A DNA stretch of 64,000 nt from Candidatus Pyrohabitans jungbluthii (GCA_002010065.2 MTMD02000002.1:544001-608000); one strand, 5' to 3'. Positions 13,901 through 61,310 are shown, counted from the first letter of the stretch. Translations and numbers: made by a program. Notes: generated by a model not told the origin, from the sequence alone.

Positions 13901-16411
13901 GCTGCCGTATATAAAGTTACTGTAGATGAGGTTATTAAAACACGCCAGCACTTTTAATCCATAATCCTGGTTTCCTGTGATGTTGTTTGAGCTAATGGTA
14001 TTGCCGTGGCTTTTCTCCAGTGTTATGCCAAGGTAATTTTGCTCAACCTTTATATCCTGTATGCTCGAGCCGTTGGTGTTATACAGGTAGATTCCAGAGG
14101 CACCGCTTGCGTTTGCTCCCCTTATGGTGAACCCTGAGATATTTACAGCAGAGGTGTTGCTAATTAGCAGGGCATGCGCTGAGGGATCAGCGGCTACGAT
14201 AAATGTTGAAGTGTTCCCTCCGCCGATAAGGTTTATGCTCTTGTTCACGAATACGTTTTCAGTATAGGTGCCAGGGGCTACATACACCGTCTCTGCTGGT
14301 GTGGCATAATCTATGCCCGCCTGAATTGTAGGTACTTCCTCGGGCACTCTAATAACTGAGGCGTTTACCGTGAAGCTCACCGCTGAAGCATTTAGATTGC
14401 CCCAGCTGTCGTTGGCATACACAGTTAAGTTATGGAGACCATTGCTCAGGAAAGAGAGGTTAAGTAGCAGTGTGTTGCCAGCAAAGGGGGTGCTGTTATC
14501 TCCGTCGTCCACCGAGTACCATATAAAGGTGGTGCTCTCATCGGAGATACTAACGTTGAGTAGTGGTGTGTGGTCCCCCTGTACTGAGCCATTCGCTGGG
14601 GAATGTATTTGAATCTCTGGCGGAGCTATATCCACAGGATTTACCCTTACGGTGAAGTTCTCAAAGCTTGAGGTGTAGTTCTCGTTTCCTTCAAAGGTGG
14701 CATTGAAGTAAAAGACTCCGCTGGTGTTCATTTGTATGATAACCTCAAGGGGTGATGAGCCTGAAACCAGGACTTTGTCAACGCCATCGGAGTAGTTGGT
14801 AGTAACGGTGACATTTCCTGAGTCCGGCACCACCAAGACGGCTGTAAAGTTCAGGGTATCAAACTGGTTCACAACCGCATCGCTACGGGTACCATTTATG
14901 TAGAGGTGAACCGAGGAGTCAGCCTTTAAAACCTCAAGCGCTTGGGAAACACTTCCGCTGGTGTAGTTCTGTCCGCCTGAGGTGTTGAATACGTAAATGT
15001 AAACCCCCGCAGCTAAGGTTGAGATATCAGGGTTCGCCACTGGCGTGCCATTCCTGTATAAGGTGTATGTAACGTCCTCATCGCCTAAGTTGGTTTCCAT
15101 GCCGGTTATGTTCGTCTCGCTCCCGTAGGTAACGCTCCACCCTGGCGAAGCGGTTAGGTTGAGGGTAGGCGAGGCTTTGGAAACAGTGTAATAAAAGATG
15201 TCGGTGGCGTTGACCAGACCTTCGGTGTTGTTGGCATACATTCGCCACTGATAAACCCCTGCGGCAAGGGAGGGATAGGTGTAGGAGTAGGTTGACCCGG
15301 AGTAGCTGCTCACAGTGTAGTTGACCAAGCTTCCTGTGAAGTTGTGCTCTATTAACACGGTGTCAATTGCAGAATCCGGCTCGCTCCATGTTACATTGAA
15401 CTGGTAGGTTTGGGAAAAAGAGTAGCTAACAGGCGCTGGAGGCGAAGCTGAGGGGTTGCTCCAGAGGGGAGGAGTGGTGTCTGCAGGTGCTGCTATCTCA
15501 ATCGTCCTGGTCTCACTTACGTTGAGATTCCCTGCACTGTCATTAGCCCACACGCGATAGGTGTAATTCCCATTCGCCAGGTTGGTCTTGTTTATATACC
15601 AGTTCGTCCCGCTCCCGCTCATGCTCTCGTTGGTGCCGTTCCACTCTAACCAGGCTGTTCCAGGTTCGCTCAGAGTGACGTTTATGAAAGTGTATCTGCG
15701 GTCTGTTATTGTAGCTCCATCAGGGTCAGTTGGTGGGACGAAGGTTATAGTGGGGGGTGTATTGTCGGGCGGTTGCCACGGCCAGACCACTAGAGGGTAG
15801 GGGTCCTCGTTGTTGGAATCTATGATGTAGGAACTGTCGCAGATGTTGTCCCCGTCCGAGTCAGTGCAGTCAGTGTTCTTCTCCCACTTATTGCCCACAT
15901 TGTAGCCGTCGATGGTGGAGTACCAGGTGTTTGTAACTAAAAAAGTTAGAGAAATAGTTTCGTGATAATCTTCTTGGGTATTGTTGAGGTAGTTGTTGTA
16001 GTATGTAGCACCATTCCCGGTATTTTCAATACCATAGTAATTGGAGGATATATTATTTCCTGTTATCACAGCGCTGGACCCTACTTGAATTCCTCCCTCC
16101 CAGTCGGTTATGACGCAGTTTCTTACCGTAACATTGACCAAGTCGGTGGGTATAGAAATTCCTATACTATTAGAATTATCAGTCCCATCTATTCTGTAAC
16201 CCTGACAGTCAAGCACAACGTCACTTGCGGAGATAGTTATGCAGGTGGAAGCGTAAGAGTCGATTATGTCACCTATTAGATAGTAAACACCTGAAGTGTC
16301 AATGTTAACCCCACATGAACTAATCGTCGCAGCACTACCCTCTCCAACAAGGGCAACAAAAGCTACCACCAAGCACAGGAGGAGTTGTCTTATTTTTTCC
16401 ATGGCACCCAA
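10964..16411 (-). CDS. Large cell-surface glycoprotein: two NosD/CASH beta-helix regions, many Ig-like repeats, CGP-CTERM
   Basis: Signal peptide; beta-helix repeats with DxDGDxIxD motifs; repeated D(N/T)TPP...YTxxVxAxDxAGN units; C-terminal LCGP + TM + RR. Start may be the ATG at 16402. Confidence 0.88.
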   Translation of the reverse strand: MGAMEKIRQLLLCLVVAFVALVGEGSAATISSCGVNIDTSGVYYLIGDIIDSYASTCITISASDVVLDCQGYRIDGTDNSNSIGISIPTDLVNVTVRNCVITDWEGGIQVGSSAVITGNNISSNYYGIENTGNGATYYNNYLNNTQEDYHETISLTFLVTNTWYSTIDGYNVGNKWEKNTDCTDSDGDNICDSSYIIDSNNEDPYPLVVWPWQPPDNTPPTITFVPPTDPDGATITDRRYTFINVTLSEPGTAWLEWNGTNESMSGSGTNWYINKTNLANGNYTYRVWANDSAGNLNVSETRTIEIAAPADTTPPLWSNPSASPPAPVSYSFSQTYQFNVTWSEPDSAIDTVLIEHNFTGSLVNYTVSSYSGSTYSYTYPSLAAGVYQWRMYANNTEGLVNATDIFYYTVSKASPTLNLTASPGWSVTYGSETNITGMETNLGDEDVTYTLYRNGTPVANPDISTLAAGVYIYVFNTSGGQNYTSGSVSQALEVLKADSSVHLYINGTRSDAVVNQFDTLNFTAVLVVPDSGNVTVTTNYSDGVDKVLVSGSSPLEVIIQMNTSGVFYFNATFEGNENYTSSFENFTVRVNPVDIAPPEIQIHSPANGSVQGDHTPLLNVSISDESTTFIWYSVDDGDNSTPFAGNTLLLNLSFLSNGLHNLTVYANDSWGNLNASAVSFTVNASVIRVPEEVPTIQAGIDYATPAETVYVAPGTYTENVFVNKSINLIGGGNTSTFIVAADPSAHALLISNTSAVNISGFTIRGANASGASGIYLYNTNGSSIQDIKVEQNYLGITLEKSHGNTISSNNITGNQDYGLKVLACFNNLIYSNFIYGSVYDSGTNYWNSSTGGNFYSGYEGWDTDGDGIGEQPYNISGGTNIDYLPLTDRLDNQAPKFENPIASRTYLRTGDTITVTVEVYDAASGVDNSSVFILYENGTVLAQMHNISQSSFMAEITVDYLEGLHTYNFSARDVAGNVNSSQQLTIVVDNTPPTLHRETPRSEEIFNISSILFRLSIEENLSNFSYCDVYINGEKNLRLNFSNLPGNSSNQTYIELSEGVYTWYANCTDSAGNSKSSESWNFTVDLSAPSTSDDAPSEWQRSEFTVNLSCTDNLSGCNYTYYRIDNSSWQEGNQIFIDTEGNHTIEYYSVDRAGNAESIKHSFAALDVTPPRVENISISSEYLTTGASLWVNASIADLLSGVNTSSIKILNENGSPISTMVEVSPGAFGASFSIEYPEGSYTFNVSAKDRVGNENSTQSFTIIVDNTPPSVTVNPTIYPSGKSVAKPGDVITLNITAFDEKVDRVVVNASTIGAGIVLLSENNGFYINDSVVVGNITSGVYYLPVEVYDKAGNSNESEAIEVRVDSQAPYLQGVEPVNNYISTRAEVSFKFEAGDDVDETLAYRLIIDGGAQQYFGTFTNGSQVVKKVQLADGNHTWELVVNDLAQNVISTGVRNLTVITTLIKHHTIPHLAGGENYSTGVVNTLLGSYEVVFKAGNTTTGGNITVNISTSLPESVEENLTLPIFLNFSEDNSTWLSDMEYIILKIYYNQSDIPQDIKEESLRVARFTKEGWIRADCEVLACPAPLGNVTLFDSGVDTSSHYVWARVSGLSLWGVMGKQSNTGSSYEVSDGDGMSHRITILEVALPTKTIYPGDSVPIRVKLSSNYAEPGVEVYLENLPHGWSSPSFRGYILPGISEHLITLTIPTSATANKSYELVLVVKSWFDVERKPLNVFVSKYLEKAFKETTFNESEFAVAEMVDKTRQKGKGRIIMKKENIAHEDLEAGNKKYLCGPNFILLLAVILLYINRRFVKIFG

Positions 16412-18993
16412 GCCTTAAACAGAGCTAATACTACTATAGAGATTAAAATAACCAGGTTAGGCCCGCAGATGCCCTTCTTCTCTGGTGATTCTCCTTCTTC
16501 AACGATTTCCTCTTTGACAACCTCCTCTTTTTTCTCAGGTGGTTGAGAATAATCTTTACCGGAAGAGGCGGCTTTCTTCTTTGCCTCTTTCACCTGCTTT
16601 TCGCTGAACATCATAATTCCAAACTCTTCAAATGGAACAATGCTTCGGGTTTCCTGTACACTGTAGCCAGAGTTAGGGCTGCCTGAGATTGCGAAGAAAC
16701 CAAACCTATCGGTTTTCACAATAAAGTAAACATATTCGTAATCCTCTGAATAGGGCATGGTTTCAAGCTCTATCCAGACATTATCTTCTTTTATGTAACC
16801 CTTGATAGTATTAACGCTTACATCATTATTTTCCAGCCATGACTTTGCTATTCTGAATTTTATCTCTGCACTTGCAACATATGCATCAGGTTTATCAAAG
16901 TGTATTTTATAGTACCCATATACCTTTCCAGAAGGTTCCTCAAAAATGAAAGCTGGTTTTTCTTTGTGGGTATCCACACAGATCTTCGTATAGTACATAT
17001 CCTGGGCTCCAATAATGCCTATTGAAGCCACATCCGGCACTGCTTCGGGATCGAAAATCGCAGTGCCAGTGCTCCCAGCAAGTATCTTGGGAATTTCCAT
17101 ACAGTTCTCCGCAAGCCCGCCACCTCCACCGCCGCCCGCCGCTGGTGGAGGCGTCTCGCCCGGAGGTAGAGAAATCTCAGTAACGTTAATTGTCACCTCA
17201 TCGCTCGCCACGTTCCCTGCTGTATCGCTGGCTTCCAGTTTGTAGCTCCTCAGCCCCACACTGGAGGTATCAACAGACCATTCTATTGTGCTGCCGGATG
17301 CATAGACCCCACTAACTAAGAGGGTTTCGTTTAGATATATTCTGAAGTCTTTCGGGTGCTCCTCGGTAATTGTCCAAGTGATTGTTGTGGCGGTTCCCTG
17401 TTCAACTTCTGTTCCCGGACTAACGCTTCTGGTTATCTCAGGAGCCTCCAGATCTATCTCTATTGTTCTGCTCTCGCTGCTCCCCCAGTTTCCTGCGAGG
17501 TCTCTGCCATAAACCCTGTAGGTGTGTGTGCCGTGGGTAATCCCAGACTTTGTCCCAGACCAGCTATCCCCAGAGCCGCTCATCGAGATATTTTCTACTC
17601 CATCCCACTCCAGCAACGCCTCGCTCAAATCTTCGGTGGCGGTTATGGCAACTGTAATACTGGTGTCAGAAGTTACTGCTCTGTCCTGAGGCGTGGGTGA
17701 AACAAAGCTTATACTTGGTGGAGAGGTGTCAGGAAGCTCAACAGTAAAACTCACAGAAGCCTCGGCGATGTTGTTCGCCAAGTCGACGGCTATAATTTTA
17801 ATAGTGTGGCTACCCTCTGAGGCGTTGATGGTAATGGGCGGGCTGAAGGGCAGGTAGGCACCCCCATCTAGGGAGTAGAACCACCTTGCCACACCCTCGT
17901 CGGCGCTTACGTCGAGAGAAACCTCTGTGGAGGGGTATGTTATACTCTGGGGCGAGTTAATTGTTATCTGAGGCGGAGCTAGGTCCTTAAGTTCCTCTGG
18001 CGATGAAGTGGAATAGAGGGGTAGATTGTCACTTCCCAGAAGGCGGGTATAGGCATTGTAAGCAGAGTCTCCTATTCCATCGTTGTTGTTGTCGGTGCCG
18101 GTGTAGTCCCACCAGTAGTTGCCACCTATGTACTGCCCGCCGATGATATTTTCCCCCGAAGTTTTTGCGGTATTCCAGGTATTTGATGTATCTTCGCTTG
18201 CGGTGTTGTCCACGTATACGAAATTGTTGTAGAATAAGTTGTTTGAGGAGGAGGTTATAAAGATACCAACGGCATTCTCAACAGAAGAGTAGATAACATT
18301 GCTTTTAACAGTATTGGAGTTTGAAGAACTCTCCAAGACTATGCCGCCATTTGATACCCCTCCCTTTATATCGTTGCCTTCTATTGTATTGGAAGAGGAG
18401 GAGCGCAGGTATATTCCCATGGATGAGCTTCCTATAATGCCGTTGTTTTTTACAATGTTTCCATCGGAATTCTTTATTCTTAGGGCCTCTCTGCTGTAGA
18501 TAATCAAATTGTTTTCAACCGTCACGCTTGAAGCGTCTTCTAGCAGAATTGGATATGGGACTCCTATAAAAGCTGAATTTTTAATTGAAAATCCCTGCCC
18601 TGAAACTTTTATTCCAAATTTGGCTCCCTGGAAGACAAAATTTGACACCTCTGCGTTGTCTGCGGTTACTGTAATCAGCGTGTCAGTTGTCCTGGGTAAA
18701 AGTATGGGGTTGTTTTTACCTAGAAGCTTTAGACTCTTGGATAGAAAAATCCCAGCCTCTTCCTCATATATACCATCGCACACCACAATCGCGTCATTGT
18801 TCGCAGCCTCGGCAACCGCCTTTCTAATAGGATTTGGGTACTCGGAGGATGAGTAATAGCTATCTCCGTTTTCACAGGGGGCGGTCCCCTGGTAAACTAC
18901 CAGAGTTGCTGCATTTACTAAAGAAAAACTCAGCATTACAACAGCAAGCACCCACAGTTTCTCTGAATATCTATTCATTCCACAGTCCCTCAA
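16390..18993 (-). CDS. Cell-surface protein: NosD-like beta-helix, Ig-like domains, PGF-pre-PGF-like domain, CGP-CTERM
   Basis: GGNYW..Y.G.D.N.DGIGD; Ig repeats; PPPAAGGGGGGG linker; AEIKFRIAKSWL...FGFFAISG; KKGICGP + TM. Confidence 0.87.
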   Translation of the reverse strand: MRDCGMNRYSEKLWVLAVVMLSFSLVNAATLVVYQGTAPCENGDSYYSSSEYPNPIRKAVAEAANNDAIVVCDGIYEEEAGIFLSKSLKLLGKNNPILLPRTTDTLITVTADNAEVSNFVFQGAKFGIKVSGQGFSIKNSAFIGVPYPILLEDASSVTVENNLIIYSREALRIKNSDGNIVKNNGIIGSSSMGIYLRSSSSNTIEGNDIKGGVSNGGIVLESSSNSNTVKSNVIYSSVENAVGIFITSSSNNLFYNNFVYVDNTASEDTSNTWNTAKTSGENIIGGQYIGGNYWWDYTGTDNNNDGIGDSAYNAYTRLLGSDNLPLYSTSSPEELKDLAPPQITINSPQSITYPSTEVSLDVSADEGVARWFYSLDGGAYLPFSPPITINASEGSHTIKIIAVDLANNIAEASVSFTVELPDTSPPSISFVSPTPQDRAVTSDTSITVAITATEDLSEALLEWDGVENISMSGSGDSWSGTKSGITHGTHTYRVYGRDLAGNWGSSESRTIEIDLEAPEITRSVSPGTEVEQGTATTITWTITEEHPKDFRIYLNETLLVSGVYASGSTIEWSVDTSSVGLRSYKLEASDTAGNVASDEVTINVTEISLPPGETPPPAAGGGGGGGLAENCMEIPKILAGSTGTAIFDPEAVPDVASIGIIGAQDMYYTKICVDTHKEKPAFIFEEPSGKVYGYYKIHFDKPDAYVASAEIKFRIAKSWLENNDVSVNTIKGYIKEDNVWIELETMPYSEDYEYVYFIVKTDRFGFFAISGSPNSGYSVQETRSIVPFEEFGIMMFSEKQVKEAKKKAASSGKDYSQPPEKKEEVVKEEIVEEGESPEKKGICGPNLVILISIVVLALFKAWVPWKK

Positions 18994-19818: not shown

Positions 19819-21117
19819 CTAAGAGAAGCCCCACTTCCTCAGCTCTGCCTTCGCTTTCCTCCTTTTACCTTCTAATCTCGCTATCTTCTCCTCTGTCAGG
19901 GCGATGTAATCCTTAAGCTGCTTCTCAAGTTTTTCCACTTTCGCCAGCTCTATGCGTGACCTCTCATCGCTGCTCTCTCCAGAGAGTGAGTCTTTAAAAT
20001 CGTAATACTTCTCCAGGCACTTCTCCATTATTCTGCGCAGACTGAAGCCGCCTAGGAGAATCATGGCATCAACGCTCTTACTCTCGGGAGAGGTGATCAA
20101 GCTGGTGTACCTCAGAATCCCTCCTCGCCCGCCTGCCAGGTGCTTCACAGCCCACTCGCGGGAGATGTCCTCTAAATCTTCCTGGGTAATCTCACCCTTC
20201 AGCACCTTCTCTTCAGGGGCGATAACTATTATGTAGGCCATTGTGGCGGTGCCCTTGTCCAGGGGTACCATTGCGTTGTTGGAAGCGCTCTCTAGGATTG
20301 CGTCCAGGCTGAGCACATCTGGGTCATTCCCAAGGCTCAGGCAAGGGGTGAAATGGATTGTCCCTAAATTGCTGGGGAGCTGATAGTAGTCTGCGATATC
20401 TATCGTTGCCTTCGAGGCATAGGTGCTGGGCGCAATCAGCATGTGTATCGCCCTTATAATCTCCTCGTTTATCCTCTGGTAGCGCTCCTCCTTCTGCCCC
20501 CGCCCTAGGTCGAGAATATGCTCCACCTGTGAGTTGTCCACAAGGATTACCAACGCAGCGTTCTGCTCGCCGTTATAGCGCAACAACCTTGAGAGGCCAC
20601 AGATGGCGTTGAAATGCCTCTGCGGAGCCTCAAAGTCATAGGGAAAGATGCCCAGCGCTATGAAGTTGTTTATCCTCTCCATGCCGAAGCCAGGGTTCCT
20701 CCTAACTCTGTGGATGATGTAGGGTAGCGACCCGTTGCCTGTGCCTCCTCCCAGGGTAGCGATACCAAGGAGCACATCGCTGCTCCGAAGCCTTAAGCTT
20801 GCGATGTATCTTCGTATGTTCTCGTAATCCTCAATTGCTTCTCTTTCGCCAAGAACCCAGTTGTTACCCGCGCCGCTTGGAGCCCTGCCAAAAATGCAAA
20901 CCCGCTCGCGTTTTATCTTCTCGTACTTTTCCCTCAGCTCGGGGCTCTGCGCAAAGATGTGCTCCAGCGGCTTCTCGGGCTTAACGTCCGCCGGCGTTGT
21001 ATTGAGGAGAAGCACTCTATCGCCGATGCTCGGATTTTTATACTTCGCGTAGTAAAGAAAGGCTATGCGGTTTGCGCCCTGTCCGCTCGCTATTATACCC
21101 CATCTTGTAGCTTGCAT
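19819..21117 (-). CDS. Divergent tubulin/FtsZ-superfamily GTPase with tubulin-like motifs
   Basis: T1 SGQGANRI; T3 SGAGNNW..G; T4 TLGGGTGNG; FNA; LVDN; INEEI; T7 TIDIAD; C-terminal helical/coiled-coil extension. Confidence 0.9.
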   Translation of the reverse strand: MQATRWGIIASGQGANRIAFLYYAKYKNPSIGDRVLLLNTTPADVKPEKPLEHIFAQSPELREKYEKIKRERVCIFGRAPSGAGNNWVLGEREAIEDYENIRRYIASLRLRSSDVLLGIATLGGGTGNGSLPYIIHRVRRNPGFGMERINNFIALGIFPYDFEAPQRHFNAICGLSRLLRYNGEQNAALVILVDNSQVEHILDLGRGQKEERYQRINEEIIRAIHMLIAPSTYASKATIDIADYYQLPSNLGTIHFTPCLSLGNDPDVLSLDAILESASNNAMVPLDKGTATMAYIIVIAPEEKVLKGEITQEDLEDISREWAVKHLAGGRGGILRYTSLITSPESKSVDAMILLGGFSLRRIMEKCLEKYYDFKDSLSGESSDERSRIELAKVEKLEKQLKDYIALTEEKIARLEGKRRKAKAELRKWGFS

Positions 21118-21121
21118 GCTT

Positions 21122-22495
21122 TCAACCTTTGAGCTTTAATGTTTTCTTCTCAAATTTAACCTCTGGATGTGTTTCGCTATAGCGTTTGAGGAAATCCTCG
21201 GCATAGCGCACCTTGAGTTCCTCTGCACTCACCTCGCCATTCTCCCTGAGCTTCTGCTCTATAATCTTTTCTATCGCCGGGTAGTTTTTAGCTATCTTCA
21301 CAGTCTTATATCTGGTGTCAAATTCGCCAGATAGGGTCTTAAGCACATCAAGCGCTTCCTTTGAAAACTTGGAGAAATCCTTTCTGGGGTCAAGCTTTGA
21401 GACGTACCTCTCAACCCCCTTCCTTCTTACCCCAGCCACCTCCAGCTTTTTCAGCTCTTCTTCTAGGGCTACAATCTCCCTTGCGAGGGCTCTAGCAACC
21501 TCAAGCGTGAGCCTCTTTGCTTCTTCCCTGAGGGTGCTTAGTTCGCTGAGGTAGCCAGGGTCATCATAGCTCAGCACCTTCTCCCTAAGGCTTAAAACTG
21601 CGCGCTCCTCCTTTACAAAGTCCTCCTTGATAAACTTGAGAAGGCGCTCCAGGTAGCTAATTATCTCCTTCTTTTCCTGCAGGAAGGGCTTTGTAAGGTA
21701 GCTTGCAGCCTCGCTTCGCACCTTCTGAAGCTTGGGTATAACCTCTACGCTATGTCGGCGCTCCTTAACTATCTCAAGCTCCTTTCTCAGGTGAACAACC
21801 TCAGCAGAGATGCTTTCGGCTGTATCTAGGAGAAACTCCGCTTCGCTGATGCACTTCTGAATTATCTTCAGATATACCTCCTCGCTTCGTCTGCGCTTTT
21901 CAAGTAGCTCTCCCAGCGTAGCGGAGGGCATCTTCACTATTCGTCTCAGCTCTTCGTACTCCTCGCCCACAGAGAATCCGCTCTCAACCAAAGCTTTCGC
22001 GGCGCTGAGCAACTCTTCCATCCTCTTCGCTGCTGCTTCACCATAGCTCGCAGCAGCCAGCGACTCCAGGCTGCGAAGCTGCTGCTCAACTTTCCTGCTC
22101 TCCAGCTCAATCGCGGTGAGCGTCACCTTTTCAATTTTCTTCTCGTTTACCTCAAAGTCCTTCGTGAAGAATCCTTTTGATATAAGCTCCTTCCTTATCC
22201 TCTTCAAATCCCTCATAAAGGGCTCAATGTCGATAAACTCAGAGGCTTCTTTTATGTTATCTTCTATCTTATCCAGCGCACTCCTAATTTTGTTCAGAAT
22301 TTCAATTTTAAGAAGCATTACGGTCTTGTCGGTCTTGCTCTTCCACCAGGTGTAAATTAGGCTAGCAATGAGCACGGATACTATTACTCCAACCGCAAGG
22401 TAGGATACAAAGTTTATTCCAAATGTGAGGAGCAGGAACAAGCCTGCACCCAGCGTGGCAAGGACTACCAGGGCGGTTATCACATATTCGTTCAT
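21122..22495 (-). CDS. Membrane-anchored long coiled-coil protein
   Basis: Two N-terminal TM helices followed by about 400 aa of E/K/L-rich helical sequence; gaps of 2-4 nt to the flanking tubulin-like genes. Confidence 0.82.
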   Translation of the reverse strand: MNEYVITALVVLATLGAGLFLLLTFGINFVSYLAVGVIVSVLIASLIYTWWKSKTDKTVMLLKIEILNKIRSALDKIEDNIKEASEFIDIEPFMRDLKRIRKELISKGFFTKDFEVNEKKIEKVTLTAIELESRKVEQQLRSLESLAAASYGEAAAKRMEELLSAAKALVESGFSVGEEYEELRRIVKMPSATLGELLEKRRRSEEVYLKIIQKCISEAEFLLDTAESISAEVVHLRKELEIVKERRHSVEVIPKLQKVRSEAASYLTKPFLQEKKEIISYLERLLKFIKEDFVKEERAVLSLREKVLSYDDPGYLSELSTLREEAKRLTLEVARALAREIVALEEELKKLEVAGVRRKGVERYVSKLDPRKDFSKFSKEALDVLKTLSGEFDTRYKTVKIAKNYPAIEKIIEQKLRENGEVSAEELKVRYAEDFLKRYSETHPEVKFEKKTLKLKG

Positions 22496-22497
22496 TT

Positions 22498-23697
22498 TTA
22501 AGCCTCGCTCTCAAGGAAATCTTTCTCGTATTCCTCAAGTACGCGCAGGGAGATATCTTTGTACTGGCTTGCAAGCTGGCTCAACGTCTTCAGGCGAGAA
22601 ATCTGATTTGGGCGGTAGGTTAGCAACACAGTCGCCGTCGCTAGGTTGCGCTTTGTCAGGGCGACGCCGAAGTGGGTCTCTCCAAGGCGAGAGTGCTCCT
22701 CCATCACCTGCTTAGCCATGCTGGTGTTTATCCTGCCGCGCTTTGTCAGGTAAACAGGGGGGATGCGCAGCAGCACAAGGTTCTTCTCCGCGTGCTCTGG
22801 TCTAACGTCGGCGAGGGTGAGCTTCATGAAGCTCCTGTAGAGCAGGGAGATGACATCTATCTCCTTATACCCGCCGAAGGGGAAGATATAGTGCAGAAAG
22901 TTTCTCGTTCTCTCAGAAGCTCTGCCTAGGGCTGCGAAGCCAGGACGAGTGCGCTTTCCAAAGGAGAAGCTTGTCGCGGCTATCATGTCCTTGAGGTCAA
23001 TCACAGGAGCGTAGCCCTCGTACTGCGATGGGTCCACACGTTCTATCACAGTGCCTATGAGAATGTCCCGTATGCTCCTAGCAACGTACTCATTGTACCT
23101 CTGGAACAAGCTCTCGGCACTTTCTGCGTACGCAAGCTTCTGGTTGTCTACCAGAATCACAGAGTCCACGTGCTCTATGATCAGGTTTAAGCTTTCCACC
23201 GCATTTTTCGCTGTAAGACCGCCCTCATGCGTTGCTGGCAGCACAACTATGGCGATAACCGGAATTCTCATCTCCTTCAAAACGCTCGCAACCACAGGTC
23301 CAGCCCCACTCCCGGTGCCACCACCCAGAGCAAAGGCAACAAAAGCCACGGGCACGCCTATACCCGAGCCCTCCTCGCTCTCGATGCTTAACCTCTCCAC
23401 AATCGCCTCCTTCAGGTTGTCCCTGAAGCGCATGGCATCTTCCTCTGCCTTTGCGCGGTTCTTCCCGTAGCCCCCGCTCACAAAGTGCTCAAAGCCGTGG
23501 AGTGTGCCCGGGATGAACCCTCTATCCCTTGACATTCCAATCCAGTGCTCTCGCTTTATGTTTTTGAGTGTCTGCAGGTCTAGGGTAGCCGAGTTTATGG
23601 CTATGGGCACGGCTATTTTGAACATTATCTCATCATAAAAAGCAGCGTCTATTATTGCTCCGCCGCACTGTCCCACACCTATAAAAGCGTATGGCAT
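22498..23697 (-). CDS. CetZ-like tubulin/FtsZ-family GTPase
   Basis: Start set at ATG 23697 (GGTGA RBS). IGVGQCGG, AINSA..DL, GGYGKN, FALGGGTGSG, LPA..EG, KNA, LVDN, VIDLKD, GFAALG. Confidence 0.9.
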   Translation of the reverse strand: MPYAFIGVGQCGGAIIDAAFYDEIMFKIAVPIAINSATLDLQTLKNIKREHWIGMSRDRGFIPGTLHGFEHFVSGGYGKNRAKAEEDAMRFRDNLKEAIVERLSIESEEGSGIGVPVAFVAFALGGGTGSGAGPVVASVLKEMRIPVIAIVVLPATHEGGLTAKNAVESLNLIIEHVDSVILVDNQKLAYAESAESLFQRYNEYVARSIRDILIGTVIERVDPSQYEGYAPVIDLKDMIAATSFSFGKRTRPGFAALGRASERTRNFLHYIFPFGGYKEIDVISLLYRSFMKLTLADVRPEHAEKNLVLLRIPPVYLTKRGRINTSMAKQVMEEHSRLGETHFGVALTKRNLATATVLLTYRPNQISRLKTLSQLASQYKDISLRVLEEYEKDFLESEA

Positions 23698-23777
23698 GAT
23701 TTCACCAGCTTGCTCTGAGGTAACCTCGCTGTTCGCTTTTATATTTATTTCAAAGGTCAAATATAAAATATTATTGC
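23698..23777. promoter_or_regulatory. 80-bp divergent promoter between the tubulin operon and the surface-protein pair
   Basis: AT-rich, with TTTATATTTATTT and AAATATAAAATA TATA-like elements between head-to-head starts. Confidence 0.55.
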
Positions 23778-24728
23778 ATGGGCTCAAGGGTGCTTCTTCT
23801 CATTCTGTTCACGATTTCGTTGATTCCCAGTGTTCATTCTCTGGACTGTGGAGATGTCCTCGCGGAGCTTCGTGGCTTCACTTCGTCAGCCTTCGCTGCC
23901 TATCCAGAGCTTAGGCAGGTGAAGCAGGATACCTTGCTTCTGCTCTACTCCCAGCAACGCACAGCATGCGACATTCAGCTTTTGAACTTTGCCTCCTCTT
24001 CCATGGAGTATCTCAAAAGCATGGATGCCGCCTACCTTCTTGTAAGCAGCGCTGAGCTGGAGTCTCAGAGGGAGGGGGTGAAGAAGGCGATAGAGGCTGA
24101 GAGGTTTATCTCTGAGATGCGCTCAGATAGCACTGAGCTGGGAATCCTCGCTCAAGATGCGGTGCAAGAGGCTGAACAGGGGAGGGAGAACTTCCTACTT
24201 TCGCAGGCTCTGACCTTCGAGAGTAGGGCTGAGAAGGCTGAGAGCACAAGGGATAAGCTGGCAAACTTTGAGCTCGCCATAGCTTGCTACGAGGCGGCAG
24301 ACGCTCTTCAGGCGAATAGCTTGAAGGTCAGAAAGCAGAGCTTAGAGGAGAAGTACATAGCTGACATAGTGGCAGCGCAGGAGTACCTGAGCGAAGCAAT
24401 AGCTTTGCTCACGCGCGCAGAAAAGCTTGAGGTCGCCTTCCTCGGCTTTGTGGACGCGTACACCTTAGCAAGGGAAGCAAAGATGAGCCTTGTCAGGGCT
24501 AAAGAACTTTACCAGCTTCATCACGAGAAGGAGAAGCTGGCGGAGGTTGAGGAGGTCTCTATTAATGCTGAAGAAGTCTACTCCTCAACCAGAAAGAGGA
24601 TTCTGATGCTATTTGCCATTGTTTCTCTAACTCTCACCTCGCTTTCGGTGTACATCCACAGCATAATTCTAAGCTGGGAAAGGGATACCTATGACTGCTA
24701 TCTTGGTAACGAGCTTGTGGGGGCATAG
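23778..24728 (+). CDS. Single-pass membrane protein with alpha-helical ectodomain and short conserved cytoplasmic tail
   Basis: Signal peptide (VHS|LDC), Ala/Glu-rich helices, C-terminal TM, tail WERDTYDCYLGNELVGA. Confidence 0.8.
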   Translation: MGSRVLLLILFTISLIPSVHSLDCGDVLAELRGFTSSAFAAYPELRQVKQDTLLLLYSQQRTACDIQLLNFASSSMEYLKSMDAAYLLVSSAELESQREGVKKAIEAERFISEMRSDSTELGILAQDAVQEAEQGRENFLLSQALTFESRAEKAESTRDKLANFELAIACYEAADALQANSLKVRKQSLEEKYIADIVAAQEYLSEAIALLTRAEKLEVAFLGFVDAYTLAREAKMSLVRAKELYQLHHEKEKLAEVEEVSINAEEVYSSTRKRILMLFAIVSLTLTSLSVYIHSIILSWERDTYDCYLGNELVGA

Positions 24729-24729
24729 C

Positions 24730-26760
24730 ATGCGCTTCTTGAGTATTCTTCTTGTTACGCTCTTACTCTTCGCCTCACCTGTGAGCGCCCAGGTTACGGC
24801 AAGCTTTGACTATGATGAGGTGGACTTTTACTTCGACAAGCCCAAAAATGAGGTCTCCTATTTTGAGGAGAACTTAACCTTGGAGTTCTTCAATGCAGAC
24901 AATGAGAGCGCAGCGATACTCTCTGGTCTTGAGGCAACGCTCTCTGGCGAGGCGAAGGATAAGGGCATGAGTGTTGTCCTCGAGAAGAGCTATCTTCGGG
25001 TTGAACCCAACGATAAATCTTACCTCACCATTTCCTTCCGTGCACCCCCAAGCGTGCCTGAGGGCAGGTATGAAGCGAAGCTTGAGGTTAAGGGCAACTA
25101 CACTTACATTACCAAGCAGGGTGTCCACACCCTACTCCATGAATTCTACATCACAGTAAATGTTGACCACCCACCTGCGACGCTTGCGGCGAGCTGGGAC
25201 CTTGCGGAATGGGGAAAGCTCAGAGCAGGGCAGAGCTTTGAGCGCACCCTCACCGTGAGGGAGGTTTATGGGTACGCTGGGGCAAGCAACGTTACGCTCT
25301 ATCTCTCAAGAACAGGACCCGTGAACCTCACCTACACCTCGAGCTTAGGGGATATACCCGCAGGAGGGTCAAAGAGCATTAAGGTTAAGGTTCAGGTACC
25401 TGAGAGGTACCTTAGGCCGGGAGACTACAAAGTTGTTCCAAAGATTGTGAAAGATTACAAAACGCAGGTGTCAACGCTTGAGCAGGCTAACTATACCATC
25501 CCAAAGCCAGAGATGGCGATTTCCACCACTAAGTTAAATTTCGGCAGGCTCACCTTTGAGGTTGGCAAGGATACAGCGACAGCAAGCATAACTGTCAGCG
25601 AGGTTGGTGGCTACACTCCAATCGAGGGTTTGAGCATCTCTCTGGTTAAGGGGGAGGAGGGGTGGGTGGGCTACACCCAGGTTAACTACATTCCCCCAGG
25701 GAGGAATGCAACAGTAAACTTTACCCTTATCCTGCCCCCGGATGCAAGCCTCGGAAAAAAAAGCTGGATTTTTGAAATAACTACTGTGCATGCCGGGAGT
25801 GTGGAGATTCTTGGGGAGGCTATAGTGTATTTCCCAGGTTTGGATGAGGCGGAGCGTTCCCTCGCTGCCCTGCCCTCGCTGCCCTCTCATCCAGAGGTCA
25901 AAGAGGCGGTGCAGAACCTGCGGGAGATGATAGCAGCCTCTAGGGATGTAACCGAACTCAGGGAGATAGCAATGGTCATGTCGGTGTACAGCGGCGTTAG
26001 CTCTTTTGTGAATATCCTAGCAGGTGCTGAAGGTAAGCCCCTTGAGGAACGCGTTGAGAGCATTATACTTGCAAAGAGGAGTCTCAACAGAGCAAAGATA
26101 GGAAGCGAGAACCTGGAGGACAGGAACTTAAAGAAGTACGCTATACCCGCGGTTGAAGCCTTAGAGAACGTGTGGAAAAGGGAGGCAGGCTCAGCAGCAG
26201 AGGCTCTTGAGGCTGTGGTAAAGCAGAAGGAGGAAAGCGATTACCGTGGCGCAGCGCTGGACTACAAGAGGCTTAAGACGCTTTATTCGCTGCTCGGTGA
26301 AGCTGAGAGTGCGAAGGAGTACGCCTCAAAGCAGGAGGAGATGGAGCGTGCCTATTTCAACTCCCTATCTGAGGCGATGTCCCTCCTCAGGCTTGCGGAG
26401 GAAAATGTAAGCGCAGCTAGAAGGCTCACCTTCAATATAAAGGAAGCCTCCTTTGTTATCAACCCCTTCCATTACGAGGCGGTTATGGCTTACTACGATG
26501 ATGCTCTCTCCAGCGTTGAGAGGGCAAGGCTTCTTCTTGACAGGGCGGGCGAAGATGAGGAGGCGAAGCTGCTTCAGAGGAGGATGAAAGAGCTCAAAGA
26601 CAGGAAGCGCACCATTGAGAGAACCTTCAGGGTCTACCTTGCCTTCCTCACCCTCTTCTTCCTGTGGTTTGTGGCGAGGGTGACTCTGGGTCTGCTGCGC
26701 TGGATTCGTGACTCGGAGGCTCTTGCAGAGGGCGACGTGCTCCTTGGGGCCGAGGGTTAA
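24730..26760 (+). CDS. Single-pass membrane protein: about 3 Ig-like domains, helical stalk, TM and conserved tail
   Basis: Start set at ATG 24730 (signal peptide VSA|Q). Ig-like repeats (PEGRY, PGDY, V.EV.GY), helical region, TM, tail WIRDSEALAEGDVLLGAEG. Confidence 0.82.
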   Translation: MRFLSILLVTLLLFASPVSAQVTASFDYDEVDFYFDKPKNEVSYFEENLTLEFFNADNESAAILSGLEATLSGEAKDKGMSVVLEKSYLRVEPNDKSYLTISFRAPPSVPEGRYEAKLEVKGNYTYITKQGVHTLLHEFYITVNVDHPPATLAASWDLAEWGKLRAGQSFERTLTVREVYGYAGASNVTLYLSRTGPVNLTYTSSLGDIPAGGSKSIKVKVQVPERYLRPGDYKVVPKIVKDYKTQVSTLEQANYTIPKPEMAISTTKLNFGRLTFEVGKDTATASITVSEVGGYTPIEGLSISLVKGEEGWVGYTQVNYIPPGRNATVNFTLILPPDASLGKKSWIFEITTVHAGSVEILGEAIVYFPGLDEAERSLAALPSLPSHPEVKEAVQNLREMIAASRDVTELREIAMVMSVYSGVSSFVNILAGAEGKPLEERVESIILAKRSLNRAKIGSENLEDRNLKKYAIPAVEALENVWKREAGSAAEALEAVVKQKEESDYRGAALDYKRLKTLYSLLGEAESAKEYASKQEEMERAYFNSLSEAMSLLRLAEENVSAARRLTFNIKEASFVINPFHYEAVMAYYDDALSSVERARLLLDRAGEDEEAKLLQRRMKELKDRKRTIERTFRVYLAFLTLFFLWFVARVTLGLLRWIRDSEALAEGDVLLGAEG

Positions 26761-29300
26761 ATTATGCTTGCTTTGAGCCTTGAGAGCACCTCATCGTTGC
26801 GAAGCATGTCCTCTATGCACAGGAGGAGGTAATGGGAAAGGGCGAAAAATGCCCGAGCTTCGAGGTGGCTCCTCCTCCCGCCCTTCTCAAAGAGCTTCCT
26901 TGAAATCTGCCAGAGGGAAGCAAGAGGATAGGTGGAAATCTCCTTTATTAGTGAGGTGATTTTCCTGTCCACTTCGAAAATCTCCCTCTCAAGCTCGTCC
27001 TTTGTCAGCTTTCCAAGAAGGAAGGCCACTGTTTCTTCTAAGGGTAGCGGAGGTGCACCGCAAGCTTCTGCTTTCTGCTTTGGCGAAGCTTGGTAGAGGG
27101 CGACATTCTTCCAGTCCTGCATGGCTTCGCAGAGCATTGGAACAGCCTTTTCTGCTGCACTTATAAGGGCATCCACGTGTGCCTTAGAATCACTAAATTC
27201 AGATGTCAGGGCAAGGACTTCGATGCCATCTATAATACCGTAGCCTATGCTTCTGAAGTAAGCTGGCAGGCATGGGTCGTGCTCGGCGACACGCTCATAG
27301 GCTTCGTCAAGGGAGCGGCGCAGCTCTTCAAGGCGCTCTTCTTCCTCCCTGCCAAGGCGAAGCGCAGGCTCAAGCTCCACCTCAAGCCTGTCTACTACGC
27401 TCTCTGGCGTGAATTTCTTGAATGCTGGTTTAAAGCCCTTCTTCTCCACAGAAATCGTCGTAGCTTCGGGCTTAATCCTGAGGGTGGCGAAGCCTTCTGC
27501 GTCGGTTGTAGCCTCAATGTTTCCGCTCTTTACCAGTGCTCCGGAGAGAGGCAGGCTGCTCTTTGAGCTTCTGACTCTTACCCGCAGGGTGCGAAGAGCC
27601 TCGCGAGGTTCTGTAACCTGTGCCTGAGGCTTAGCTGGCTTGCTCCTTTTAAGTAGGAAAAACAGTAGCGCAGCAAAAATTGCGAGGGCTGCAATCACAG
27701 CGGCTTTATTCCTGCTTGGCAGGCTTGTCCACCTCTCCTCGAAGAGAGGCACTGCCAAAATTTTTTCTCCAGATATTATGAAAATTCGGCTCGCGTCAGG
27801 GGAGATTGTGGCATACTTAACGCCCTTCTCAGGATAGTACCGCCATATAAGCCTGCCTTGTTCCGCGTCGTACAGTTCAACGCTCTCTTGAGAAGCTGCA
27901 AGCAGGTAACCCCTGGCTGAGTGGAGTGAACTCATGTTCTGCTCCAGGGTTATATTCCAGAGGTGCTCACCTTTAGCAAAGGCGTGGATCTCATCCTTGA
28001 GCAGAGCGAAGACCACATCCTCATCCATGGTGACAGCAAGAATTGTTTTTTCAAAGCTTGTATTCCACACCAAAGCGCCGTCGTAGGTGTATAGATAAAG
28101 GGTGTCGTTCCCTGCAATGGCTATGCTCTCATTGGATATCGCTAAGCTAGCTGGCTTGAACTCAAGCTGCTTTGTCCAGAGCAGCGCGCCCGCGGTGTTG
28201 AAGAGGTACAGAGTATTACCGGCAATCACGCTTGAGCCCCGAGGGGAAGCGGCGAGAAGCTCAGTATTCTTATCAATGCTCGCGTTCCACACCTTCTGAG
28301 TGCCCCTGTACATGGAGAGTAGGTTTTTCTCAGCCACTAAGGAGTACTCCTCCGAGGCTGCAATCATGGGTGAAGTTTTCAGTGTTATAGAGGCGAGCAT
28401 CTCTCCCGTGGGCTTGAGGATGTACACCTCATTTCCCGCGACGGCGATAAGGTTCTGCGAGGTGGCGTGAAGCTGGGCAGGTGAGCGTGGAAGCAGTATC
28501 TCATAGAACTCAAGCCCCGCCTGAGAGAGGTTTACAAGGCGAACCCTTCTCGAAGCCTTGAAGCTCTGATTTCCCAGCGATACCACAACCTCTATTGGAT
28601 ACTCACCAGGGGGCAAGCCCGAGGTGTTCCAGTTGTAGGGCAGAGTCTCCGCAGTCTGGGTGCCGTTGATAAGCACAGCCACTGTCGCATTCTCTGGCAC
28701 AATCGTGGCATTTATTGCAATGCTCTCGCCGGTGGTGAAAACCTCTCCAGGTTTGGGGGAAGTTATTTCCGCATAGAGCGCAGGTGTGGTGTTGAGTACC
28801 TTAACCTCTGCGAAGGCAAAGGCTACGGCACAGCGCCCAAGGGAGGAGCACTGCTGGGGTGAGCACAGGTTGCTCGCCTCGCTGTTTGAGGCAAAGCTGG
28901 TGTCGAAGGCAAACACAGCAGTGAGCCTGTAGCTTCCCGGCTTTCGTGGAGCAAAGAAGCTGAACTCCACTGAAACGCTCTGGTTGGGAAGGGCGCTACC
29001 TGAGTATAGCTTGGCTACCTCAGCTTTGCTCCAGTTTCCGAAGAGGTTGACCCTCGCTTCGCCGGTAGCGTAGTTTCCAAACTTCCATGAGAGAACACCC
29101 CTCACATGCTGCCCCGGAGCGACGCTTATGCTGCTCTGAACCCCCTTTGCATTAGGGTCAAGGTCAAAGGAGGAGAGGGTTATCACTTCGAGGTTTTTTC
29201 CAGGGGTGGCGTAGTAGACATCCTTGGGGCATAGAGAATAAGCCTGGGGAAGAGCAAAGGCTATGAGGATGAGAAGAACAACCTTCCTCAGCATGCACAT
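26757..29300 (-). CDS. Single-pass protein: Ig-like and PQQ-type beta-propeller ectodomain; cytoplasmic beta-sandwich and helical domain
   Basis: Signal peptide; PGSY/PGEY Ig units; repeated G.L.W propeller blades; TM AAVIAALAIFAALLFFLL followed by KRSK; PLSGALV...TTDAEG...KKGF; about 190-aa helical C-terminal domain. Confidence 0.8.
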   Translation of the reverse strand: MCMLRKVVLLILIAFALPQAYSLCPKDVYYATPGKNLEVITLSSFDLDPNAKGVQSSISVAPGQHVRGVLSWKFGNYATGEARVNLFGNWSKAEVAKLYSGSALPNQSVSVEFSFFAPRKPGSYRLTAVFAFDTSFASNSEASNLCSPQQCSSLGRCAVAFAFAEVKVLNTTPALYAEITSPKPGEVFTTGESIAINATIVPENATVAVLINGTQTAETLPYNWNTSGLPPGEYPIEVVVSLGNQSFKASRRVRLVNLSQAGLEFYEILLPRSPAQLHATSQNLIAVAGNEVYILKPTGEMLASITLKTSPMIAASEEYSLVAEKNLLSMYRGTQKVWNASIDKNTELLAASPRGSSVIAGNTLYLFNTAGALLWTKQLEFKPASLAISNESIAIAGNDTLYLYTYDGALVWNTSFEKTILAVTMDEDVVFALLKDEIHAFAKGEHLWNITLEQNMSSLHSARGYLLAASQESVELYDAEQGRLIWRYYPEKGVKYATISPDASRIFIISGEKILAVPLFEERWTSLPSRNKAAVIAALAIFAALLFFLLKRSKPAKPQAQVTEPREALRTLRVRVRSSKSSLPLSGALVKSGNIEATTDAEGFATLRIKPEATTISVEKKGFKPAFKKFTPESVVDRLEVELEPALRLGREEEERLEELRRSLDEAYERVAEHDPCLPAYFRSIGYGIIDGIEVLALTSEFSDSKAHVDALISAAEKAVPMLCEAMQDWKNVALYQASPKQKAEACGAPPLPLEETVAFLLGKLTKDELEREIFEVDRKITSLIKEISTYPLASLWQISRKLFEKGGRRSHLEARAFFALSHYLLLCIEDMLRNDEVLSRLKASII

Positions 29301-55742: not shown

Positions 55743-56664
55743 TCCACTCAATTTCCCTCTTCAGCCCCTCTTTTATATCGACGCGTGGATTATAACCAAG
55801 CTCCTTCTTGGCTTTGGAAATATCTGCATAGGTGTCTCTTACGTCGCCTTTTTGTTTTTCAATGTATTTTACTTTCGCTTTCAGTCCAGTAAGCTCTTCC
55901 AGAATCCTTATAACTTCGTTGATTGATATCCTGTTGCCACCACCAATGTTGAATACTTCACCGCTTTTTGCATATTTTACCGCAAGAATGTTTGCTTCGA
56001 CGATGTCCCGAACATATGTGAAGTCCCTCGTTTGCCTTCCATCACCATATACTACAATTTCGTCTTGCGTGAGAATCGCCTTTATGAATCTGTGAAATGC
56101 CATGTCTGGACGCTGTCTCTCACCGTAAACCGTAAAGTAGCGCAGAGATACTGTGGGCACGCCAAAGTTTTTCCAGTAAAGGTAGCAGAGGTGCTCACCT
56201 GCCAGCTTGCTCACGCCATAGGGGGAAACCGGACGTGGATTGTCGGTCTCACGCATGGGCAGAGAATCTACGTCGCCGTAAACTGAAGAGGAAGAGGCAT
56301 ATACGAACTTTTTTATATTAGCATCCTTTACAGCCTCCAGCAGCGCCTGCGTTGCAAGAATGTTGCTGTCAGTGTATATCTTAAAGTTTTCTCCCCAGCT
56401 CGCTCTCACCCCAGCCTGCGCAGCCTGGTGAAAAACGTAATCAGCGCCCTCAACTATCTCCTTAAGATTAAGGTTGTTAATGTCCTCCTCGATGAGCTGA
56501 AATCCCTCTGCTTCCAACAAATTTTCTATGTTCTTCTCCTTTATCTCTTTCGGGTAGTAATCTGAGAAGTTATCTATGCCCACGACCTCATGGCCTTCTT
56601 TTAGAAGCCTCTCAGCAAGGTGCGATCCGATAAAGCCTGCGCAGCCTGTTACTATTGATTTCAT
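55720..56664 (-). CDS. NAD-dependent sugar epimerase (UDP-glucuronate/glucose 4-epimerase-like)
   Basis: TGCAGFIGS, HQAAQAGVR, ASSSSVYG, PYGVSK, RYFTVYG.RQRPDMA. Confidence 0.92.
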   Translation of the reverse strand: MKSIVTGCAGFIGSHLAERLLKEGHEVVGIDNFSDYYPKEIKEKNIENLLEAEGFQLIEEDINNLNLKEIVEGADYVFHQAAQAGVRASWGENFKIYTDSNILATQALLEAVKDANIKKFVYASSSSVYGDVDSLPMRETDNPRPVSPYGVSKLAGEHLCYLYWKNFGVPTVSLRYFTVYGERQRPDMAFHRFIKAILTQDEIVVYGDGRQTRDFTYVRDIVEANILAVKYAKSGEVFNIGGGNRISINEVIRILEELTGLKAKVKYIEKQKGDVRDTYADISKAKKELGYNPRVDIKEGLKREIEWIKSYYNI

Positions 56665-56686
56665 GGTTATACCACAATTTGTCGTG

Positions 56687-56893
56687 CTATAGATACCCCA
56701 AACCTCTCAGCCTCTCTTTGACCTGCTCCTCTTCTTCTTCGCTGTAGACCACCTCTGCCTCTTCTTCCTCATCTTTCAGTATTTCTTCGAGGACAAAATT
56801 CACGTACTCTTCCACAGAGCTGAATTCTTCGCTTTCGTCGACACGCTTCTTTATCTCTTCATATATCTCATCCTTTATCTCGATTTTTGCCAC
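56687..56893 (-). CDS. Small RHH/CopG-like protein with ERLRGLGYL tail
   Basis: KIEIKDEIYE.I....EFSSVEEYV.FVL (RHH pattern), acidic linker, VKERLRGLGYL. Confidence 0.82.
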   Translation of the reverse strand: MAKIEIKDEIYEEIKKRVDESEEFSSVEEYVNFVLEEILKDEEEEAEVVYSEEEEEQVKERLRGLGYL

Positions 56894-56902
56894 GCTACCA
56901 CC

Positions 56903-58504: not shown

Positions 58505-58561
58505 GGCTATCCCTCTTTTCGAATTACCATTGCATAGCTAATTCTACCTACTTTAAGAAAA

Positions 58562-60560: not shown

Positions 60561-60588
60561 CTATAACCACCTATATTTCATTTTTAGT

Positions 60589-61275: not shown

Positions 61276-61310
61276 TTTATCACCTTTAACTTAAAGATCA
61301 TATTCATCGG

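Follow-up and report, generated by a model that had tools for sequence, protein, structure and literature searches.

The window analysed here is a stretch of 64,000 nucleotides from Candidatus Pyrohabitans jungbluthii (GCA_002010065.2, MTMD02000002.1:544001-608000), whose identified relatives are Hydrothermarchaeota genomes assembled from metagenomes. The window contained a locus of six genes, with Tub2, CC, and Tub1 on the minus strand, genes A and B on the plus strand, and gene C on the minus strand and convergent on B (Table 1). Genes A and B, which are the subject of this report, encode single-pass membrane proteins that are diverged paralogues with a shared C-terminal tail motif, and they belong to a conserved archaeal module that also includes tubulin homologues. 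The ATG of B lies 2 bases past the stop codon of A, and this start (ATG 24730, giving 676 amino acids, aa), which matches the database copy, is more likely than the ATG at 24691. The hydropathy of both A and B showed one N-terminal signal-like segment and one C-terminal membrane helix.

Table 1. Genes and gene parts at the locus; nucleotide positions are counted from the first base of the window.
Feature	Position	Strand	Length or residues	Description
Tub2	19819..21117	-	432 aa	Predicted divergent tubulin/FtsZ-superfamily GTPase
CC	21122..22495	-	457 aa	Predicted membrane-hairpin coiled-coil protein
Tub1	22498..23697	-	399 aa, from ATG at 23697	Predicted CetZ-like tubulin-superfamily GTPase
Spacer	23698..23777		80 bases	A+T-rich, between the divergent Tub1 and A genes
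Gene A	23778..24728	+	316 aa	
A, signal peptide			1-21	
A, outside domain				All-helical
A, membrane helix	24594..24674	+	273-299	
A, tail	24675..24725	+	300-316	Predicted to be cytoplasmic; stop codon to 24728
Gene B	24730..26760	+	676 aa	
B, signal peptide				
B, Ig-like domains			~22-370	Outside; immunoglobulin-like (Ig-like)
B, helical domain			383-632	Outside; paralogous to A
B, membrane helix	26626..26700	+	633-657	
B, tail	26701..26757	+	658-676	Predicted to be cytoplasmic; stop codon to 26760
Gene C	26757..29300	-	847 aa	
C, signal peptide				
C, Ig-like domains				Outside
C, beta-propeller			266-518	Outside
C, membrane helix			529-552	
C, beta-sandwich			570-643	Predicted to be cytoplasmic
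C, helical domain			651-844	

The first-pass annotation of this DNA had described a conserved tail behind the membrane helix of both proteins, of the form W-x-R-D-x6-G-[ND]-x-L-[VL]-G-A, and the positions and sequences that it gave were exact. A ends in ...SWERDTYDCYLGNELVGA and B ends in ...RWIRDSEALAEGDVLLGAEG, and both tails fit this strict motif, which stands 1-3 residues ahead of the stop codon. A loosened version, W.[RK][DE].{4,8}G[NDE].[LVIM][VLIM]G, matched only the C-termini of A and B in the six frames of the 1.99 Mb genome, a count that was made post hoc. W300, D303, and L309-G-N-E-L313 were invariant in all 12 orthologues of A (27-72% identical overall). D661 and G668 were likewise invariant in 12 of 12 orthologues of B, which have an aromatic residue (W, Y, or F) at the first position and an acidic one (D or E) at position +11. 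The tail was free of gaps in an alignment of 88 A-family sequences, and its successive conserved positions were W (84 of 88), D (72), D/E (53), L/V (72), G (74), N/D/E (60), and L/V/I (83). The position four residues before the W was occupied by R in 56 of the 88 members, and W300 is one of only three columns of the whole alignment that are conserved at 90% or more. The positions conserved in the orthologues of both proteins yield the shared consensus [WYF]-x-x-[DE]-x-x-[DE]-x-x-hydrophobic-G-[NDE]-x-hydrophobic. The motif as first proposed is therefore kept in a relaxed form, whereas its R and its terminal G-A are not conserved.

The tail is the most conserved and slowest-evolving part of A, with a mean column identity of 0.77 compared with 0.53 for the outside domain. 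Haloarchaeal B tails end in Y-[IL]-R-[ED]-x-R-E-x-x-S-G-[ND]-F-L-[LV]. In a further lineage that is represented by metagenomic sequences, A ended in ...R-W-x-x-E-L-D-D-T-x-L-G-E-E-L and B ended in ...A-Y-x-x-D-x-x-E-R-E-x-G-D-[IV]-x-V in all 11 loci read, with the motif at the very C-terminus.

Profile comparisons well support the view that A and B are duplicates of one domain, in which a helical part outside the cell is joined to a membrane helix and a tail. The alignment of A 38-313 with B 383-671 by hhalign had a probability of 97.3 (E 2.3e-11) and continued through the membrane helix into the tail, and a broad A-family profile (HMMER) retrieved B at E 2.2e-10; both results bear out the earlier claim that the two proteins are diverged paralogues. 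The stalk matches KQSLEEKY / KQEEMERAY and SLVRAKELY / SVERARLLL, which had been picked out by eye, were aligned in the same way by hhalign. The same broad profile also retrieved B-type genes in 19 genomes of the order, at E values from 3.9e-9 to 7e-19. On top of the domain that it shares with A, B has gained Ig-like domains (PF10633, E 1.9e-6, in a Pfam scan), and the scan agreed with the first-pass annotation that only B carries them.

No Pfam, NCBIfam, or PADLOC family matched A, and no Pfam or NCBIfam family matched B over the region that it shares with A. A profile search of 1.84 billion representative proteins returned 95 at E <= 0.001, nearly all of which were 300-360 aa in length and had the same layout. 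Across the four lineages that are considered below, the A proteins were down to 15-30% identical overall; a quick tree of the 88 A-family sequences served only for choosing a subgroup, and no evolutionary claim is drawn from it. The AlphaFold2 model of A was all-helical, with a predicted local distance difference test score (pLDDT) of 89.7, and its last helix (251-315) runs through the membrane segment into the tail. C24 and C64 of the outside domain were invariant in the A orthologues. Foldseek found no match to this model in the PDB at E <= 0.001. VIA-align gave 2odv_A as the best match (Z 12.7, root mean square deviation 3.0, 127 residues aligned), followed by many three-helix bundles at Z ~10, which is the range of generic helical arrangements. 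In the ESM Atlas, the model matched one archaeal cluster of 147 members with a score of 0.87, below the 0.9 bar.

Tub1, CC, A, and B form the invariant core of a conserved module that is common to four archaeal lineages, and Tub2 and C are added to this core in three of the four. A adjoined B in all 11 related loci, and Tub1-CC-Tub2 lay divergently beside A in nine of these, with one more cut by a contig end. C was located downstream of B in ten loci, and the contig of the eleventh ends there. Among 35 genomes of the order, A/B and Tub1 were found together in 22, and neither was found in 11, three of which are 96-98% complete. Two partial genomes contained Tub1 and Tub2 only (62% complete) or B and Tub2 only (70% complete), and in the four genomes where the profile search gave A only, B follows A as well. 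The first-pass annotation had tied the motif-bearing pair to tubulin homologues, a tie that wide occurrence of the motif without tubulin neighbours would contradict; the reverse was observed. The association of the A/B family with tubulin homologues is well supported.

Three other groups of sequences extended this picture. A tblastn search with one distant A-family member retrieved five plasmid records, from Halobaculum (3), Natrinema, and Halobacterium salinarum, of which three plasmid loci were read. In Natrinema, Halobaculum, and Halobacterium salinarum (plasmid pHS2), each of these loci consisted of one operon of Tub1-, CC-, Tub2-, C-, A-, and B-like genes. The order of the operon was Tub1-like, a small membrane protein, a protein of 337-352 aa, CC-like (690-696 aa), Tub2-like, C-like (915-986 aa), A-like, and B-like, with overlapping A-like and B-like reading frames. 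Tub1 of the window was 35% identical to its haloarchaeal counterpart (E 7e-70), and between Tub2 and the second tubulin gene in haloarchaea the identity was 34% (E 9e-77); CC, B, and C gave weaker matches to their counterparts than Tub1 and Tub2 did. In the haloarchaeal clusters (L051:12621-16852, L049, L050), convergent genes encode a PQQ-type propeller/CARDB protein and an AAA ATPase whose N-terminus gave a CDC48-type match; neither was seen beside the Hydrothermarchaeota module. On the Halobaculum halobium plasmid (L050), the annotation splits the Tub1-like gene in two (250 and 122 aa) and the tail motif is missing from the end of the B-like protein, which suggests that this copy of the module is decaying.

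A scan of metagenomes for A-type loci, built on three sequences, covered 26 loci of the metagenomic lineage. A Tub1-like gene was divergent beside A in 19 of them, and the other seven have fewer than 650 bases upstream; B follows A in 19, and the other seven end soon after A. CC follows Tub1 in ten of the 26 loci, and CC homologues adjoin Tub1 in haloarchaea too. In one branch of this lineage, a 908-aa protein is encoded two genes past CC (L078:2492-5218, minus strand). Its N-terminal part is a Tubulin_2 domain (PF13809, E 1.3e-24), its C-terminal part is long and helical, and it may replace Tub2 in that branch. Among approximately 365 other archaeal genomes sampled, the only match was genome G384, which contained orthologues of all six module genes on six contigs, among housekeeping genes (L052-L056, L083, L085). 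G384 also contained a second, divergent cluster (L053), in which a C-like gene lies together with two tubulin-like genes and with an A-like gene that has no G in its tail.

Both Tub1 and Tub2 can be assigned to the tubulin/FtsZ superfamily on the basis of their sequences. Tub1 matched PF00091 with 85.1 bits (E 9.9e-24), above the curated cut-off of 33 bits. Tub2 scored 32.5 bits as a protein (E 1.4e-7, just below the 33-bit cut-off) and 34.3 bits in the genome search, and it carries a GGGTGNG loop. The best solved relative of Tub1 is 4b46_A (E 2.2e-19, over the full length), which its depositors labelled "cell division protein FtsZ" and which we take to be CetZ1 of H. volcanii. Tub1 orthologues share 50-95% identity (79% as a mean over alignment columns), and the protein has an acidic C-terminal peptide; a longer, TTG-started Tub1 frame (to 23787) had no match among the starts of the orthologues. 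The spacer between Tub1 and A probably holds two divergent archaeal promoters, as judged by reading its sequence; a scan of it for bacterial-type promoter consensus sequences is uninformative for an archaeon. Tub2 was present in 24 of the 35 genomes of the order, with orthologues that are 46-89% identical. After a helix and a variable linker, Tub2 ends in a W-G-[FL] peptide (19819-19845, minus strand) in eight of nine orthologues, which resembles the C-terminal docking peptides of FtsZ-family proteins; the haloarchaeal Tub2-like proteins lack it. Five further tubulin-superfamily genes were observed in the same genome, three of them within 3.5 kb on the same contig, approximately 85 kb before the window (G000:C2:456030-459544), and two of them FtsZ-like on contig C8, giving a total of seven with Tub1 and Tub2. 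In two related genomes, an in-frame TAG was observed inside the Tub1 match (G015:C67:3683-4870) and inside the Tub2 match (G019:C19:2678-4012).

CC has two N-terminal membrane helices within residues 3-52, followed directly by a conserved basic stretch, Y-x-W-W-[KR]-x-x-x-D-K-T. The remainder of the protein is long, helical, and cytoplasmic, and CC matched neither a Pfam nor an NCBIfam family. In C, the beta-sandwich directly follows the membrane helix, and the helical domain has a conserved C-terminal M-L...R-L motif that is also found in the haloarchaeal protein of 915-986 aa. The Pfam matches of C were PQQ_2 (E 1.3e-10) and CarboxypepD_reg (E 1.8e-5). The AlphaFold2 model of C had a pLDDT of 83.3, and its fold-search matches were all to the beta-propeller, with none informative on the cytoplasmic helical domain.

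A heterodimer of A and B was likely beforehand, given the paralogy of the two proteins, the 2-base spacing of their genes, and their strict co-occurrence. Complex prediction with B 375-676 and A returned "weak support", with a score of 0.34 in three of three runs versus 0.00 for the best of three controls; at least 94% of the contacts agreed among runs, the partner pLDDT was at least 78, and no interface was returned. The mark used for this call is reached by 116 of 157 solved complexes and by two of 215 mismatched pairs, and at scores of 0.60 or below only 18 of the 157 solved complexes reached it, along with both of the passing mismatches. A weak pass of this kind counts only because the paralogy and the 2-base spacing had already made the pairing likely, and the score is a modest increase in the odds rather than proof. 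A heterodimer of A and B is plausible. The first-pass annotation had called it integrin-like: the pairing is weakly supported, but no integrin alpha or beta domain was matched in A or B by Pfam at E <= 0.01, and the all-helical model of A does not fit membership in these families.

Both tails are predicted to lie in the cytoplasm because of the signal peptides, the cysteines C24 and C64 of A, the Ig-like domains of B, and the single membrane helix of each protein. Since the tails are only 17-19 residues long and start at the end of the membrane helix, any partner must lie against the membrane. The module offers several candidates, including a membrane-apposed filament of Tub1/Tub2, the basic stretch of CC, the cytoplasmic beta-sandwich of C, and the tails themselves. 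The two tubulin homologues would be the leading candidates, although short of even odds, with CC close behind; something else is a less likely partner, and contact of the tails with each other or with C is the least likely of these. The high conservation of Tub1 parallels the near-invariance of the A tail. Two alike tails on one heterodimer would suit a partner that is repetitive or has two-fold symmetry, for example neighbouring subunits of a filament or a dimer of CC.

We propose, with a probability of about one half, that A and B form a heterodimer and that its tails connect the cell surface with Tub1 filaments or with CC. In this proposal, A and B would be the envelope-spanning half of the module and would associate laterally, by contacts of their helical outside domains and of their membrane helices. 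This would place the two alike acidic tails immediately below the membrane, next to the basic stretch behind the second membrane helix of CC. Together, they would form a docking site through which filaments of Tub1 (and Tub2) are linked, either directly or via CC, with the extracellular domains of the Ig-like, helical, and propeller types. The docking role of the tails is put forward as a reasoned hypothesis.

Several observations weigh against this proposal. The similarity of the two tails is not significant by itself: a BLASTP comparison of A with B gave E 0.70 for the tail, a 20-column profile of the A-family tail scored the B tail at 8.7 bits (E ~1-2), and a genome search with the tail profile placed the B frame 27th of 110 rows, with E 26. 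A tail alone is too short for significance, and the argument therefore relies on the paralogy of the whole domain and on conservation at specific positions in both families. In B, the tail is no better conserved (0.58) than the rest of the protein (0.55-0.58). In this genome, the charges that flank the membrane helices oppose the positive-inside rule, with -1 (A) and +4 (B) for the stretch before the helix and -3 for both tails. Tails of this length can reach only a membrane-apposed partner, and the acidic C-terminal peptide of Tub1 makes direct contact with acidic tails less obvious. The score of the A-B complex prediction lies in a range that is more often wrong than right unless there is a strong prior, and it came without an interface. 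As for the module itself, one of the related loci (L011) is unlinked, with no match to Tub1, CC, or Tub2 in its 7.6 kb upstream, and the two operons are unlinked in G384. The genomes of the order are related and not independent, and the 11 joint absences may represent only 2-4 loss events.

An alternative is that the tails never touch a tubulin homologue and act as an assembly motif inside a membrane complex, where they would pack against one another or on the juxtamembrane segments of CC or C and thereby keep A, B, CC, and C assembled. The spacing between conserved positions is 3-4 residues (R-4, W0, D+3, D/E+6, L+9, and L+13), as expected for a single helix face, and in the AlphaFold2 model of A the membrane helix extends through the tail. 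The basic stretch of CC would complement the tail charge of -3, and the weak computed support for A-B pairing points in the same direction. However, complex prediction returned no interface, and the juxtamembrane sequence of CC is not conserved between lineages while the tail motif persists. Furthermore, the near-invariant G in the middle of the tail, followed by N/D/E, fits the end of a helix better than a continuous packed helix. This alternative is unlikely, although it survives better than those that follow.

The tail could also be a membrane-interface or topology element, that is, a short amphipathic acidic segment without a protein partner that sets the depth or orientation of the helix or senses lipids. 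Such a role would suit a motif that begins directly at the end of the hydrophobic segment, whose best-conserved position is W (84 of 88) and which has R four residues before it in 56 of 88 members. Elements of this type, however, rarely keep G-[NDE]-x-hydrophobic ten residues further on, in two paralogues and four lineages, and the motif is absent from all other membrane proteins of the genome. We consider this reading quite improbable. A new sorting signal, which the first-pass annotation had offered as its own alternative, or more broadly a signal for processing or turnover by a dedicated enzyme or targeting factor, would agree with the C-terminal position beside a membrane helix and with proteins of several lineages that end right after the motif. 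In PGF-CTERM/archaeosortase and LPXTG-type signals, the motif comes first and is followed by the membrane helix and a short basic cluster. In A and B, this order is reversed and the tail is acidic (-3) rather than basic, and only two reading frames of the genome carry the motif whereas many substrates would be expected. In addition, none of the genes that the module keeps across lineages is sortase-like or codes for a protease. The position of the motif behind the membrane helix, the acidic tail, and the restriction of the motif to two proteins make a sorting signal very unlikely. Finally, a likeness that is inherited but functionless, or partly a chance match, would accord with the non-significant comparison of the tails alone but is scarcely credible, since both paralogues retain these positions in four lineages whose A proteins have such low overall identity, and since the tail of A has a slower rate of evolution than the remainder of the protein.

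Known systems were also considered for the whole locus and rejected. The FtsZl1 proteins are approximately 1000 aa in length, with a coiled coil fused to the GTPase, and are linked to genes for vWA proteins, another GTPase, and OmpA-family proteins, according to the passages devoted to them by Makarova and Koonin (2010; PMC2875224). The present module resembles that description in its divergent tubulin-superfamily GTPase, multigene locus, predicted action at the membrane, and coiled-coil component (PMC2875224). It differs in that the coiled coil is a separate membrane protein, CC, that Tub1 and Tub2 are only 399 and 432 aa long, and that no vWA or OmpA domain was found in the eight neighbouring proteins scanned. 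One metagenomic locus, however, does have the 908-aa Tubulin_2 protein mentioned above next to the module. An anti-phage defence system was rejected because none of the six module proteins matched a PADLOC family at E <= 0.001. A plasmid-segregation system of the TubZ type was rejected because the conserved partners are envelope proteins and the module lies on the largest contig and is widely conserved across the order.

Elsewhere in the window, an 867-aa surface protein (16390-18993, minus strand) has a NosD-type beta-helix, Ig-like domains, and a PGF-pre-PGF domain (TIGR04213, E 5.4e-21). Its C-terminal hydrophobic segment ends in K-K, which is the classical layout of a sorting signal, unlike that of A and B. 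The region 56000-62000 has a low G+C content (0.33-0.41, versus ~0.5 elsewhere) and encodes a polysaccharide flippase-type protein, two methyltransferases, two phosphodiesterase/sulfatase-like proteins, and sugar epimerases; it is probably a surface-glycan island.

Single-pass proteins link cytoplasmic filaments to outside domains in the RodZ-MreB system and in integrins, the latter consisting of two subunits with short conserved tails. The resemblance of A and B to these systems would be one of layout only, since neither contains an integrin or RodZ domain and the filament here would be tubulin-like, not actin-like. FtsZ is tethered to the membrane in bacteria by ZipA and FtsA. In archaea, SepF and CdpA are presented as membrane tethers of FtsZ in the passages that deal with them (PMC8178401, PMC12126565). 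By analogy, the common plan would be a membrane protein that is tied to a tubulin-family polymer through a short conserved peptide. In these tethers, the peptide is the C-terminus of FtsZ and the tether is a folded receptor domain, with no sequence relation to A or B. The polarity would thus be reversed in the present module, because the conserved peptide sits on the membrane protein.

CetZ proteins are tubulin-like proteins of Euryarchaeota that control cell shape in Haloferax volcanii. Tub1 shares the tubulin/FtsZ GTPase domain with them, and its closest solved relative is 4b46_A. On the other hand, Tub1 forms a separate tight group (50-95% identity) that always occurs with CC, A, and B, and its likeness to CetZ is judged from the match to a solved structure. 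Canonical cetZ genes neighbour genes for pili, cofactors, and sugar epimerases rather than the gene set of the Tub1 module, in a neighbourhood analysis whose relevant sections cover canonical cetZ and set aside "non-canonical" proteins of the tubulin superfamily (PMC9856176). The haloarchaeal "Halo.Tub" tubulin-like genes are described as quasi-tandem copies among unknown genes with coiled-coil regions, in the passages on them by Santana-Molina et al. (2023; PMC9871819). Quasi-tandem tubulin-like genes with coiled-coil neighbours fit the haloarchaeal cluster seen here, and the two may be the same cluster; the A/B proteins, the tail motif, and the Hydrothermarchaeota module are not described in those passages of the text (PMC9871819). 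The passages of Makarova et al. (2015; PMC5898192) on FtsZ, tubulin, CetZ, PQQ, and the beta-propeller do not mention the module. No description of the A/B family was found in the open-access literature searched.

We know of no account of how CetZ-type tubulin filaments are attached to the archaeal envelope. The module provides named candidates for such a link, including an A/B pair with a mutable 14-residue motif, the hairpin protein CC, and a dedicated tubulin homologue, all of which are also present in Halobacterium salinarum R1, on plasmid pHS2. The pHS2 genes concerned are OE_RS12030 and OE_RS12025, together with OE_RS12060, OE_RS12045, and OE_RS12040. Halobacterium salinarum R1 is a genetically tractable laboratory organism, and the presence of the module there makes the question of filament attachment directly testable. 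In this way, a defined motif and a protein pair are added to an uncharacterised and widely dispersed archaeal tubulin module. A more far-reaching and tentative reading, which we hold to be on the doubtful side, is that A and B are an archaeal counterpart of integrins by analogy, namely a duplicated single-pass heterodimer whose shared tail motif would be the receptor for a CetZ-like tubulin filament. If so, no earlier membrane receptor motif would be on record for an archaeal tubulin other than FtsZ, and the module would be an ancient one that spread between phyla and is plasmid-borne in haloarchaea. Filament dynamics would then position or move the surface domains, or surface contacts would steer the filament.

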